From assembly GCA_964586135.1 (NCBI GenBank), contig CAZPGS010000003.1, positions 5,780 through 37,887 of the forward strand: a stretch of DNA of 32,108 bases, in the 5' to 3' direction. Position numbers and translations under genes: made by a program. Below the pieces are notes generated by a model. It ran no database searches. It had not been told where the DNA came from and saw nothing but the letters and a program-made list of their open reading frames with translations. The DNA comes from an uncultured Nitrososphaerota archaeon (lineage in GTDB: Archaea; Thermoproteota; Methanomethylicia; Nezhaarchaeales; WYZ-LMO8). Below, in pieces: positions 7,675 through 31,921 of the stretch. The first letter of the stretch is position 1, and each line of letters starts with the position of its first letter.

Positions 7675-8960
7675 CTGATAATCCCGTACCCTATAAGCCT
7701 AAACCTTCCAGATATCTGGCGGCTTATCGCTACTCTAGTCCTCGGCTCCGCGCACACCGGCCTACGTAGCCTCACCGAGACCACGTCTTTAGAGGCCTTA
7801 GCGACAGCCCCCAATGTCGTGGCAGTGCCAACGTTTATCATTAAGACCTCGCCGGTCCTTATGCTCTCGACCTTAACCATGTCCACGGTCCCTACGGCCC
7901 TTTCGAATAACACTACTTCTAAGTCGAGGTCAAAGAGCGTTGGGGGGAGCGTCCCAGGCTTGCCCACGACGCTGCCGGCTAGGGAGTCCGATTTTGTGAG
8001 CGAAGGATCGAGAAGCGTGCCGAAGCCTATCAACCCTCCAGGTCTCGCCTCTTCCACTTCCACGTCGCCCGCCTTCAAGCTTACAACTTGAGTGTACAGC
8101 GGCTCATACTCGACCTTTCCGCCTCCCTTCTCCAACCTAATGCCGGGTCTTATCTCGATCTCATCGCCCGTTCTAGCAACACCCTGAATTATAGAACCCC
8201 CTAAAACCCCGCCCTTCAATTCCTCGGGCGTCGTTCCAGGCTTATTGACGTCGAAGGACCTAGCTATTAATGCTCTCAAAGGCTTCGTCGGGTCTCTCTT
8301 CGGGGTCGGAATGACTTTCTCTATGGTCTCTATCAAGACGTCGAGATTTGCCTTATGGAGAGCCGATATCGGAATTATCGGCGCATCCCTATACATGGTG
8401 TCCTTCAAGAACTCTCTTATTTGACGATAGTTCTCAACGACTTTATCTTTAGGAGCGACTTCTATTTTATTCTGCACCACCACCACGTTCTTGATGCCCA
8501 ATATTTCGAGGGCCTTTAGGTGTTCTCGCGTTTGGGGTTGAGGACATGGAACCGTAGCATCAATTACCAATATGGCTCCGTCGAATAGAGTAGCCCCTGC
8601 GAGCATCGTAGCCATCAGCATGTCACGTTGCACGCCCGTTTACGGGCGTGCAATCTCGTGTCCGGGGCAGTCTACGAATGAGTACTTTCTCAAAAACTCG
8701 AGCCTAGACCCGCAGTACTTGCACGTGGTCCCCGATAGCACGTAAGTTGTGTAGCACCGCGGAGGCGGGCACTTGGGGCACTTTAATACCGCAGTGTCGG
8801 CGTAGCCCAGCCTAAGCGTTATCCCCCTCTTTAACTCTTCAGAGTGCCTCGAAGCCCACACGCCCGAGAGGGCCCACGTCAAGGTAGTCTTACCGTGATC
8901 CACGTGACCCGTCGTGCCTATGTTCAGCTCAGCTTGCCTCTTCATCTGCTCCTCGGCCAC
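7671..8960 (-). CDS. eif2g: Translation initiation factor aIF2 gamma, intron-split: join(8960..8655, 8621..7671), 418 aa after splicing
   Basis: Exon 1 has [22 protein letters not shown], a zinc knuckle and DCPGHE. Exon 2 has [22 protein letters not shown] and RSFDVNKPG. Removing 33 nt restores DCPGHEMLMATML. Confidence 0.95.
8622..8654 (-). other. Putative 33-nt BHB-type mRNA intron in aIF2gamma
   Basis: Minus strand: CACG-AG^A-[TTGCACGCCCG TAAA CGGGCGTGCAA]-CGTG-AC^A. 4-bp central helix CACG/CGTG, 3-nt bulges, perfect 11-bp stem, in-frame TAA in the loop. Outer exon helix is weak. Confidence 0.88.
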
Positions 8961-9321
8961 GTCCCACCGCCTTCTCCTCGTGCTTTATGACCATGTTTAT
9001 CTGGACTATGTCCTCGGATATGGTGTTTCCGCGAACGAGCTTCCTCTTCCTTAAACCTCTCTTCTTGGCTCTAAAGCCCGGCCCTTGGCTCAGCAACAGT
9101 CTCCGTTTGACGGGCCCCGGAAGGTCAGGCAACATAGGCGCTCCGCTTCTATCACTCCCACCTCTGATGACTAACTTAACCCCCGGTACTCCAAGTAGCG
9201 CACCGTCAACTTCATCTCCTATCCTGAGCCCTACGAGGGCGCTTGCTTGAGGTCCGCTGACGGTTACTTGTCTGGCCTTTCCAGTCGCTGGGTCGGATAT
9301 GACCACTTTAAACTCAGGCGT
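8929..9321 (-). CDS. rps6e: 30S ribosomal protein S6e
   Basis: [45 protein letters not shown]. Start uncertain (ACG at 9321 or GTG at 9306). Confidence 0.95.
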
Positions 9322-9388
9322 TGTCTTTCACCCCCTTAGCATGAACACACTTCGAGGGTCAGCTAAAAACTTTGAGGCCCTTCGATTA

Positions 9389-11206
9389 CTATCTGCCAGC
9401 AGCCCTCTTTATCTTGGCAATTTCGTCTATGAGTTCTAGTTCTTCCTTTGAGAGTTGGTCGAGGAACTTCTCCTTCAATATTCTTGCATGTTCTGTTGGC
9501 ACGTCGACGTATAGGTAATCGCCCTCGTCGATGTGCCTGCCGACGATCACGTTCCCCCTGATAGAGATCGCTACGGCCTGTCCCGCCACGGCCTCGCTCA
9601 AGCTCTTTTTCTGCTCTTGTATTTGCATTATCACTCCGAGCCTTCTGCCCTTGGCGCTCATCAACGGGTACCCAGGCCTTAGCCTTCCAGCCAGTATTTC
9701 GACCCCAACTATCGCTGGGTCGCTCCTCCTGAATACGTAGCCCTTTAGAATACGGGCCTTCCCGGGCAAGGTTAGAGAGGACAGCGTCTGCCTACGATCT
9801 TCTTCCATTTTCTTCTTGACCCAGTCCAAGTAGTCCTCCACCAACCTGTAAATGACGTTGTTCCTAAACATTGGTATGCCTCTACTCTCTATCTCCTGCT
9901 CCGCGTCGGGGTTTGCACCGACATTGAACGCCAAGATAACGCCGTGGTAGGGGTCCTTCTCTTTAGTTATCGCGGCTTCGACGACGTCTCTCTTCGATAC
10001 CTTCCCAACGTCGGCCAGCCTCACCGACACGCCCAGCCCCTGTAGCTTCGAAACTAAAGCCTCAAGGGAACCTAGGGTATCGGCTTTAACCACCACTCCT
10101 ACCGCGTCCGTCGTTATCCTGATCTTTGAGAGCTCCTCTGCAACCCTTCTTACTGCCTCCTCGATCTCAGCTTGGCTCCTCGCTGAGAAGAAGGGGCTAC
10201 CAGCCACGGCATCGTCTAGGCCCTGGGCGACTATTCTCACACCAGCAGCCGCGACGACCTCGTCCACGCTCTTGAACTTGTCCTCTGGATCCCTCATCTC
10301 ATCCATGGGCTTGGGCATCAGTATGCTCCTAATTTTGGTCACTATGGGGCCTTTAAGCCCGCCGAGCACTATCGTGTCGTCCTTTCCCAGCACGCCATCG
10401 TAAATTATCACGTCTGCGACGTTGCCTAGGCCTAGAACCTCTCTGCACTCCAGCACCACGCCTTTAGCCGCCGACTCCTCGACGTAGAGCCTCTTTAACA
10501 TGTACCTCTGAGAGAGACCGGCTAAGACAAGCAGGAGGTCAGGTATGCCCTCTCCCGTCTTAGCGCTCGTGGGTATCACGGCCACGGTTCTGGTGAAGTC
10601 CCTTATCCTGTCATACCTGTCGGCTTGAAATCCAAGCTCCTCAAACTTAGCCACGATGTTGTAGATGAGCTCGTCGAGCCTCCTCTGGACCTGAGGTTGT
10701 TGCGACTTTATCGTCTCGACGAACGGCTTAAACTCGTTCTTAACCCACCCGGGTATTTTGTCTATCTTGTTTGCGGCGACGACAAAGGGCGTCTTCCTAG
10801 CTTTTAAGATCTCTAAGCTCTCGTAGGTTATCTCTTCAAAACCTTCGAGGATGTCTATGACCAAGATGGCCACGTCGGCTATTGAGCCGCCTCTCTTCCT
10901 CAAGTTCACGAAGGCCTCGTGCCCTGGGGTGTCTATGACCAAAAAGCCGGGTATCTTAATCTCAACCTTTATGTTCTTGAGTAAGGGACCGCACATCCTC
11001 TCAAGAGCAGACCAAGGCAAGAAGGAAGCTCCAATGTGCTGGGTTTGCCACGTAGCGCCGAGCGGGCGCTACATCATGGCCCCGACTTCTCTAAACATGA
11101 TCGCAGTGCCCCTGATCTTGTCGAGGAGGAGGGTCTTCCCCACGTCTACGTGTCCCAATACACATAGGATGGGCGACCTGATTCTCTTGCCCTCACCGCC
11201 GTCCAC
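9389..11206 (-). CDS. infB: Translation initiation factor aIF5B (IF-2), intron-split: join(11206..11075, 11044..9389), about 595 aa after splicing
   Basis: Exon 1 has [29 protein letters not shown]. Exon 2 has [28 protein letters not shown] and [13 protein letters not shown] start at 11206 follows GGAGGTGA. Confidence 0.95.
11045..11074 (-). other. Putative 30-nt BHB mRNA intron in aIF5B
   Basis: Minus strand: GGG-GCCA-TG^A-[TGTAGCGCC CGCTC GGCGCTACG]-TGGC-AA^A-CCC. Complete BHB with outer helix GGG/CCC, central helix GCCA/TGGC and a 9-bp intron stem; in-frame TAG inside. Confidence 0.92.
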
Positions 11207-11284
11207 CTCACAATCACCTCCTCTAGTGGTCAGCTTGATGAAAAAGCTAAGGAGAGAAAGCTCTTTAACTTGTCGTTCCAAAGC

Positions 11285-11737
11285 TCAAAGCCAGGCCTCA
11301 TCGGCTCGTGAGTAATTGCAAAGCTCCCTCTCTTCGAAGAAGATCTTTATTTCCTTCTCGGCGCTTTCCTTGCTATCCGATGCATGGATTATGTTTTGCG
11401 TTATTGAGATCCCGAAGTCGCCCCTAATGGTCCCGGGTGGCGCTTCCTTGGGGTTCGTAGGGCCTATGACCTTTCTGACGACTTGGATGGCGCCGTCGCC
11501 CTCGATAACCCCGACGACTACCGGGGCTGAGGTGATGTAGTTGATCAGCTCCTCATAGAAGTGCTTGCCTTTGTGCACCGAATATAGCTCTTCAGCCTTT
11601 TCTCTCGACATTTTCAACATCTTCAAGCCCACTATCTTCAGGCCCTTCCTCTCAAGCCTCGATAAGACCTCCCCTACGAGGCCCCTTACGACGGCTCCGG
11701 GCTTGATTATTATCAACGTTCTCTCGACGGCCATCAC
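11285..11737 (-). CDS. ndk: Nucleoside diphosphate kinase
   Basis: [35 protein letters not shown]. Confidence 0.97.
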
Positions 11738-30831: not shown

Positions 30832-31921
30832 GTGCGGCCTTTGAAGTTCTTCGAGGCTAGGAGCGTGGAATGGAGGGGTGGAGTTGTTAGGCTCATAGAC
30901 CAGAACGCCTTGCCCTGGGAGCTACGCTACGTGGAGTGCAGAAGCCCCGAAGAGGTCGCGAGGGCCGTGAAGGACATGACCGTGAGAGGGGCCCCGGCAA
31001 TAGGAGTCGCTGCAGCCATGGGGATAGCGCTCGCGGCCTACCACTCCAACGCTAGGGACTTAGAAGCGCTTCTGAGGGACGTAGAGAAGGCGGCTCAAGT
31101 GCTGTCCAAGGCTAGGCCGACGGCGAGGAACCTCTTTTGGGCCATTGAGAGGATGACGAGCACCATCAGGAGGGCTCCGAGCCTTGAGGAGGCCAAGAGG
31201 ATCGCCGTGGAGGAGGCCGTCAGGATGGCGGACGAGGACGTGGGGGTAAACAAGAGGATAGGCGAGATAGGCGCCTCCCTGATAGAGGACGGCGACACGA
31301 TACTGACCCACTGCAAACAGCTGGGCTGAGCAACCCGGCTGGCAGATCGCGGGAGCGCTGGCTACCGTAGGGTACGGCACAGCCCTAGGCGTAATTAGGA
31401 GCGCAGTGGCGCAAGGGAAGAGGATAAGGGTCATAGCGACTGAGACGAGGCCGAGGCTACAAGGGGCGAAGCTGACGGTGTACGAGCTCAAGAGGGACGG
31501 GATAGACGTGACGCTCATAACTGACAACATGGTCGGCTACGTCATGAGCCAAGGAATGGTGGACAAGGCCGTCGTGGGGGCCGATAGGGTATTGAGGGAC
31601 GGGCACGTGGTCAACAAGGTAGGGACGCTGACCATAGCCATCGTGGCCAGCAGGTACTCGGTGCCCTTCTACGTCGCGGCGCCCTCTTCTACCTTCGACT
31701 TGAGCTCGAGAGTCGAGGACGTGGTGATAGAGCAGAGGGACCCGAGAGAGGTGCTGGAGGTTAATGAGAGGCCGATAACGATAGACGTGGAGGTCCTCAA
31801 CCCCGCCTTCGACGTAACGCCGCCCGACTTGGTGACCGCGATAATAACGGAGAGGGGCATAATAAGGCCTCCGTACCACGAGAACATACCCAAGACGATG
31901 GCGAGGGCGACAAACGTTTAA
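30832..31921 (+). CDS. mtnA: Methylthioribose-1-phosphate isomerase (eIF2B-related family), intron-split: join(30832..31316, 31348..31921), 352 aa after splicing
   Basis: DQNALP, VRGAPAIG, RPTARNL, TILTHC|NAGALATVGYGTA, ETRPRLQGAKLT, VGADR, NKVGT, NPAFDVTP. Confidence 0.92.
31317..31347 (+). other. Putative 31-nt BHB-type mRNA intron in mtnA
   Basis: CTGC-AA^A-[CAGCTGGG CTGAGCAA CCCGGCTG]-GCAG-AT^C. Central helix CTGC/GCAG, 8-bp stem, TGA in the loop, frameshifting. Removal gives TGC AAC GCG (C-N-A). Confidence 0.88.

Follow-up and report, generated by a model that had tools for sequence, protein, structure and literature searches.

A probable 30-nt bulge-helix-bulge intron at the switch-I motif of an archaeal aIF5B gene

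In the hot-spring archaeon studied here, the gene for the essential translation initiation GTPase aIF5B is not contained in a single open frame. The gene lies on the minus strand of a 32,108-nt stretch of DNA (hereafter, the window; coordinates are counted from its first letter). The frame that carries the P-loop meets a TAG stop codon where the switch-I motif is due, and the rest of the gene continues in a second open frame. How, then, could a full-length aIF5B be made? Our answer, to which the sequence comparisons below lead us to assign a probability of roughly 90%, is that the 30 bases 11074–11045 are an archaeal bulge-helix-bulge (BHB) intron within the aIF5B coding region, one that the tRNA-splicing machinery cuts out of the mRNA. 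An original prediction, made from the letters of the window, had read the site as a BHB intron; that reading is supported by the present analysis.

The interruption in the aIF5B reading frame

The two parts of the gene and the insert between them are listed in Table 1. Exon 1 closes with the codons GGG GCC ATG (final base 11075), while exon 2 opens with ACC CAG CAC ATT GGA (first base 11044), and the 30 nt that separate them on the minus strand, with their in-frame TAG, have exactly the sequence that the original prediction described. Upstream, the open frame of exon 1 continues as far as 11281; the probable start of aIF5B is a GTG at 11206–11204, ahead of which lies a purine-rich stretch (11221–11213). 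Pfam matches to GTP_EFTU fall on both sides of the insert (positions 4–27 in exon 1 and 59–183 in exon 2), and exon 2 additionally gives GTP_EFTU_D2, IF-2 and GTP_EFTU_D4.

A read-through translation of the whole gene, with the TAG written as X, was compared with all PDB chains by phmmer. The best matches are archaeal aIF5B proteins: 5fg3 from Aeropyrum pernix (E = 6e-212) and 7yyp (E = 1e-186). In each case the aligned region starts with the P-loop, at read-through residue 27, reaches the C-terminus, and is broken by a single gap that consists of exactly the 10 insert residues. Removal of bases 11074–11045 gives ..E-V-G-A-M/T-Q-H-I-G-A.., at a place where the solved proteins read ..E-A-G-G-I-T-Q-H-I-G-A... 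Hence two further predicted effects of excision, namely restoration of the EVGAM-TQHIGA segment and the joining of the P-loop open reading frame (ORF) to the 543-amino-acid ORF, agree with the ORF list and with the solved structures.

Among the observations that the original prediction had named as speaking against it is absence of the insert from DNA reads. Contigs from four public DNA runs were placed on window positions 8400–11400. Seven listed contig pieces, drawn from all four runs, bridge 11045–11074; some have 0 differences from the window, and others come from strains that are ~10% diverged. No deletion or joint is listed at 11045–11074 among the contigs of these four runs. Among the sequencing runs searched for this stretch, no RNA run was found to contain it. 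The insert is present in a single copy in the genome.

The predicted fold and its conservation in relatives

Positions 11095–11030 have a minimum free energy (MFE) fold of -26.1 kcal/mol (z = -2.37), a stability matched by 1 of 200 shuffles, and the fold is a BHB. Its central helix is flanked by two 3-nt bulges, one per strand; beyond them lie the outer helix on one side and, on the other, an 8-bp stem with a 5-nt loop. The MFE register gives a central helix of 5 bp, by virtue of one extra U-G pair; the register of the original prediction, with a 4-bp central helix and a 9-bp stem, is the one kept in relatives. Read from 5' to 3' in the latter register, the intron comprises its first base, a 9-nt stem arm, a 5-nt loop, the second 9-nt stem arm, a 4-nt strand of the central helix, and two bulge bases. 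Both bulges are positioned 3' of their central-helix strand, as is each bulge in pre-tRNA BHB motifs. From the tRNA literature, the splicing endonuclease EndA cuts after the second base of each bulge. Such cuts, applied to both sides of the aIF5B fold, remove exactly the 10 codons that are absent from 5fg3 and 7yyp.

The proposed mechanism would involve (i) folding of the pre-mRNA, in which the last seven exon-1 bases ahead of the bulge would find their partners at the start of exon 2 and at the intron's 3' end, so that a 4-bp helix with a 3-nt bulge at either end, on opposite strands, would lie between the outer helix and a closing 9-bp hairpin, (ii) cleavage by EndA, most likely of the two-subunit heterotetrameric type, two bases into each bulge, and (iii) ligation of the exons by RtcB, which would probably also circularise the 30-nt intron. 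From the mature mRNA, a protein of ~595 residues would be made in which switch I is intact. Translation of unspliced RNA would stop at the intron TAG, giving no more than a peptide of ~46–70 residues.

For comparison with relatives, aIF5B was sought in 41 genomes of the class and found in 39, where both exons were placed by tblastn and the intervening bases read. An insert occurs at the identical codon junction in 23 of the 39 genomes: 20 of 30 loci in a first set, plus three of nine further genomes (inserts of 22, 22 and 25 nt; the other six have none). By family, these amount to 10/10 genomes of the window's own family, 5/5 of the two other families of its order, and 8/11 of a fourth family, with no insert among 13 genomes of four other families of the class. 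Insert lengths are 22 nt (two genomes), 25 (one), 27 (five), 29 (three), 30 (eight), 31 (two) and 33 (two), such that 8 of the 23 are not divisible by three. Nineteen of the 20 inserts checked contain a stop codon in the frame of exon 1, and the remaining one (29 nt) shifts the frame; none of these 20 could therefore be translated through. Within the genus, the sequence on both sides is conserved at the protein level (88.6–100% identity for a 44-residue exon-1 query, 86.7–94.2% for the first 120 residues of exon 2). Given that the gene is essential and so conserved, the insert must be lost before or during decoding.

Base pairing was examined in 20 of the sequences. Because MAFFT misplaced the 3' stem arm of five 27-nt introns, pairs were counted by distance from the two cut sites. 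Standard pairs occupy 286 of 300 cells, compared with 95–118 of 300 in six slid controls (in which the 3' partner was moved by 1–3 bases either way), and the number of standard pair types, summed over positions, is 38 compared with 17–25. The three outer pairs are formed in 20/20 sequences each, which gives the full hBHBh' form; the four central pairs are formed in 20, 20, 20 and 19 sequences, and inner-helix positions 1–7 in 18–20. Variation is nearly absent from the outer and central helices. In the inner helix, three to five standard pair types occur at each of positions 1–4, 7 and 8, and two at positions 5 and 6. Between families the stem sequences differ, amounting to replacement of the whole stem—a pattern that is hard to explain other than by a structure that has been kept.

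The exon side of the junction is similarly constrained. All 23 intron-bearing genes share the same nine exon bases directly upstream of the cut, although adjacent codons vary at synonymous sites. Among the 16 intron-less genomes, one keeps the nine bases exactly, and two more from its family (the fourth) have changes at third-codon positions only; divergence is wider in the other 13, some of which encode other residues. The junctions of the fourth family fit the expectation for precise intron loss, after which the constraint would have relaxed. A maximum-likelihood tree of exon 2 was built from 39 rows, nine of them only ~20% filled, and given a midpoint root purely for display. It requires a minimum of three changes of intron label, and 0 of 500 shuffles gave so low a number. 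Intron-bearing genes stand in both halves of the tree as divided at the midpoint. An old intron origin with later losses is plausible on this tree, which carries no outgroup root.

Splicing weighed against other explanations

Several observations weigh against splicing. The z-score of the single-sequence fold (-2.37) is modest, and for this reason the strength of the case lies in homology and comparison. The genomes compared are kin, so that the pair counts above overstate independence. Three genome-wide scans for BHB-like motifs joining two open frames, each set against frame-shifted controls, found no enrichment (438 matches vs 447/434 in controls, 363 vs 378/417, and, with a codon-usage filter, 106 vs 90/99); judged by eye from the joined peptides, most matches are boundaries between neighbouring genes. 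One match, C13:13177–13201 (minus strand; 7-bp stem, 8-bp outer helix), is a fine BHB-like hairpin that sits inside an intact frame, that of a FAD-dependent reductase-like gene; it was rejected as an intron because another frame reads through as an intact Rossmann-type N-terminus. Together, the unenriched scans and this false positive make BHB shape alone weak evidence. A further point concerns the splicing enzymes, since the metagenome-assembled genome (MAG) in question shows only the lower-scoring of two EndA paralogues and an RtcB frame that is short by ~91 residues. Finally, cleavage and ligation, the identity of the enzymes and the circular product are all steps that we infer.

The enzyme complement looks different in more complete relatives. 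The MAG comprises 113 contigs and is 85% complete; it gives one match to the EndA family (PF01974), of 72 bits, while 5/5 more complete relatives each carry two EndA paralogues (105–108 and 69–76 bits). The higher-scoring and presumably catalytic EndA may lie in the unassembled 15%. As for RtcB, residues 11–58 and 60–404 of the frame align with residues 19–65 and 157–501 of the Pyrococcus RtcB chain, such that the missing part corresponds to chain residues 66–156. RtcB is whole in 5/5 relatives; the gap is treated here as peculiar to this strain or its assembly, and may reflect a collapsed assembly, a deletion in the strain or a stranger cause. Judged by these relatives, the lineage encodes both enzymes. 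A pair of EndA paralogues, as in the relatives, would fit an endonuclease of the two-subunit type. In the literature, hetero-oligomeric splicing endonucleases are linked to mRNA introns and to introns with relaxed motifs (PMC2738675, PMC5829648).

How else could the two frames yield one protein? The ribosome could, hypothetically, take off at the Met codon before the TAG, slide past the hairpin and land before ACC, with the RNA uncut. Such programmed bypass is known from T4 gene 60, and the aIF5B site is superficially similar in that a stop codon stands one codon past the junction and is followed by a stable hairpin. However, matching take-off and landing codons flank the gap in gene 60, whereas the take-off codon here would be ATG, and none of the 23 sequences has ATG directly ahead of exon 2. 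Moreover, what is conserved and covaries is a pair of 3-nt bulges spaced by four base pairs, together with helices that extend into both exons; this is an endonuclease motif, for which a hop has no need, and four other genes of the genome carry the same motif with different flanking codons. We consider bypass very improbable. The same low probability is given to a split gene, in which the P-loop piece (~46–70 residues) and the 543-residue remainder would be translated separately and assembled non-covalently. Two open frames do exist, and split proteins are known in archaea. Yet the first in-frame start codon (ATG, GTG or TTG) that exon 2 offers past the intron TAG is the TTG at 11020, eight codons beyond the junction, so that an independently translated product would be without the conserved T-Q-H-I-G-A segment of switch I; all 23 intron-bearing genomes nevertheless keep the T-Q-H-I-G-A codons directly behind the insert. 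A split gene also leaves the BHB geometry and the covariation unexplained.

That the gene is simply broken—by an assembly error, the scar of a small mobile element, or decay into a pseudogene—is a thought invited by the fragmented state of the MAG and by the odd internal gap in its RtcB gene. It is hardly compatible with the occurrence of the insert in independent contigs of four runs (including the ~10% diverged strains), or in 23 genomes that span all three sampled families of the window's order and a fourth family of the class. The protein-level conservation of both exons and the single-copy nature of the insert speak likewise, and we regard this as the least probable explanation. Two other types of intervening sequence were considered and rejected. 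An intein is at odds with inserts of 22–33 nt that contain stop codons or shift the frame, as described above. Self-splicing introns of group I or II have a ribozyme core that needs hundreds of nucleotides, as against 30 nt here, and an Rfam scan of the window gave one tRNA as its only match.

Splicing of the aIF5B mRNA would have few known parallels. Archaeal tRNA and rRNA introns of the BHB type, processed by EndA and RtcB, share with the aIF5B element the two 3-nt bulges 4 bp apart and the flanking helices, and the same enzymes are presumed to act; the difference is that the substrate here is an mRNA reading frame. As the exon bases are constrained by the protein and the helix at once, synonymous sites are frozen. 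In size, the aIF5B insert lies inside the range of 11–175 nt that is given for archaeal tRNA introns (PMC2738675). The closest relative in a coding gene is the cbf5 pre-mRNA intron of Crenarchaeota (Yokobori 2009, PMC2738675, citing Watanabe 2002 and Yoshinari 2006). That intron is likewise short, of BHB type, located in a coding gene of Thermoproteota, linked to a hetero-oligomeric endonuclease, and gained and lost along the lineage; moreover, the cbf5 gene of the present genome has a 21-nt insert of its own. The two cases differ in that (i) the host gene here is a translational GTPase, interrupted at its switch-I motif, (ii) the lineage is Nezhaarchaeales of Methanomethylicia, (iii) the aIF5B motif has the full form with both flanking helices, whereas the cbf5 motif is often relaxed (PMC2738675), and (iv) the splicing of cbf5 is confirmed, while that of aIF5B is deduced from sequence.

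According to Yokobori 2009 (PMC2738675), only cbf5 was confirmed for archaeal pre-mRNA splicing, although other genes had been predicted. Schwarz 2020 (PMC7714728) describes a BHB element in the 5' untranslated region of the Haloferax volcanii HVO_1309 mRNA, and names cbf5 as the only other reported mRNA BHB intron. HVO_1309 resembles the present case as an mRNA substrate of the archaeal splicing endonuclease, and differs in that its element lies in the untranslated leader of a euryarchaeon, outside the coding frame. A 2025 paper (PMC12397907) still cites the cbf5 work alone. In the mainly open-access articles that our literature search covered, neither an aIF5B intron nor any mRNA intron of this lineage is reported, and for BHB introns of protein-coding genes in general only the cbf5 and Haloferax work came up. 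The aIF5B intron is probably unreported.

Eukaryotes provide a more distant comparison. HAC1 and XBP1 undergo unconventional, stress-regulated splicing by IRE1 and an RtcB-type ligase. As proposed for aIF5B, a small coding-region intron is cut out by a protein endonuclease acting at stem-loops, the ends are joined by RtcB-type activity, and unspliced RNA gives a different or truncated product; unlike aIF5B, the nuclease and its recognition motif are others, and stress regulation is a feature of HAC1/XBP1. Splicing of this kind is mentioned in PMC8718801.

Further interrupted genes in the same genome

Besides aIF5B, five genes of the genome contain a short insert of similar kind (Table 1), a putative intron in four of them and only a candidate in the fifth, hypD. 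Only scan matches supported by homology were kept, so that the total of six is a lower bound, biased to well-known conserved genes. In the aIF2gamma gene, the hairpin of the BHB-type insert is an 11-bp stem with a 4-nt loop, the outer helix is weak, and the PDB alignment shows a gap of exactly 11 residues. It is a family-specific feature: inserts of 31–35 nt are found in 10/10 genomes of the window's family and in 0/20 others. At the uS5 junction, inserts of 22–34 nt occur in 14 of 30 loci, in two families. For cbf5, the Pfam TruB_N match resumes in exon 2 at position 17. The hypD insert is a candidate near the start of the gene; exon 2 begins at position 29 of 351 of Pfam HypD, and exon 1, with its 49 residues, lacks the length needed for a score.

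Table 1. Positions of the aIF5B gene parts, of the predicted BHB elements, and of further candidate introns and splicing enzymes of the genome (window positions unless a contig is given).
Feature	Position	Strand	Remarks
30-nt insert in aIF5B (putative BHB intron)	11074–11045	minus	Basis: sequence, fold, PDB alignment gap, relatives
In-frame TAG of insert	11071–11069	minus	Second in-frame insert codon
aIF5B exon 1	11075–11206	minus	44 codons from probable GTG; P-loop (G1); ends ..E-V-G-A-M
aIF5B exon 2	9389–11044	minus	551 codons + stop; opens with switch-I/G2 motif T-Q-H-I-G-A
Upstream ORF	11069–11281	minus	70 aa; ORF list
Downstream ORF	9389–11020	minus	543 aa; ORF list
Outer helix	11083–11081 pairs with 11043–11041	minus	MFE fold
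Exon-1 side of BHB	11077–11083	minus	Outer strand 11083–11081; central strand 11080–11077
5' bulge	11076–11074	minus	Predicted cut between 11075 and 11074
3' side of BHB	11041–11050	minus	Central strand 11050–11047 (intron); outer strand 11043–11041 (exon 2)
3' bulge	11046–11044	minus	Predicted cut between 11045 and 11044
aIF2gamma insert, 33 nt	8654–8622	minus	Between ..PGHE and MLMATML.. (switch II region); in-frame TAA
IF-2B-family gene (MtnA/aIF2B-like) insert, 31 nt	31317–31347	plus	Codon phase 2; BHB-type without outer helix
uS5 BHB insert, 30 nt	contig C9:5876–5905 (L047 1077–1106)		Three stop codons; 10-residue PDB gap
cbf5 insert, 21 nt	contig C11:3726–3746 (L070)		Inside ..GGTL/DP..; TAA; codon phase 1
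hypD candidate BHB insert, 21 nt	contig C39:4715–4735 (L069)		Near gene start
EndA	contig C22:7334–7597 (L048 808–1395)	minus	Lower-scoring of the two paralogues seen in relatives
RtcB	contig C23:2176–3390 (L046 1498–2712)	minus	Open frame without ~91 residues

All six inserts lie within about the first 45–180 codons of their host genes, and five of the six hosts function in translation or ribosome biogenesis. The excess of translation genes may be a matter of detection bias, in that only well-known conserved genes are recognised. Spread of a repeated mobile element was rejected as a source of the inserts: in a blastn-short search, the six introns with their flanks matched only themselves, there is no common sequence, and all are single-copy. 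Two further scan matches, the TrpB-like C27:1845–1867 and the crotonase-like C1:100767–100786, give joined products that appear too short for these families.

The apparent order of appearance of the inserts would be aIF5B first (four families), then uS5 (two families), then aIF2gamma and the IF-2B-family gene (one family), with cbf5 and perhaps hypD also interrupted. It is conceivable, if rather unlikely, that the lineage has accumulated endonuclease-dependent mini-introns stepwise in its core translation genes. The initiation machinery would then depend on EndA and RtcB, and splicing could serve as a control point that ties initiation capacity to RNA-processing capacity, somewhat as in HAC1/XBP1.

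For more than 20 years, cbf5 has been the sole archaeal coding gene with a confirmed BHB intron. The aIF5B case concerns an essential and universal GTPase, interrupted at its catalytic switch-I motif, with the interruption kept across four families of the class; the 1-Mb genome studied here has similar putative introns in four or more further genes. Should the splicing be real, mRNA splicing by the tRNA endonuclease would be recurrent in some archaeal lineages rather than a single-gene curiosity, and these organisms would offer a tractable system for the competition between splicing and coupled transcription–translation. There would be practical consequences as well. Automatic gene calling would truncate or split aIF5B, aIF2gamma and uS5 in these genomes; all three are commonly used marker genes, and completeness estimates and phylogenomic alignments of the group may be distorted.

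The last of the inserts is that of the IF-2B-family gene, which falls between ..ILTHC and NAGALAT.., with the two Pfam halves covering positions 2–114 and 117–280. Judged by open-frame lengths only, this gene is interrupted in 9/9 genomes of the window's family that have a match and whole in 21/21 others. Among the relatives, the match holds one TGA in G005 and G006, and one TAG in G012.

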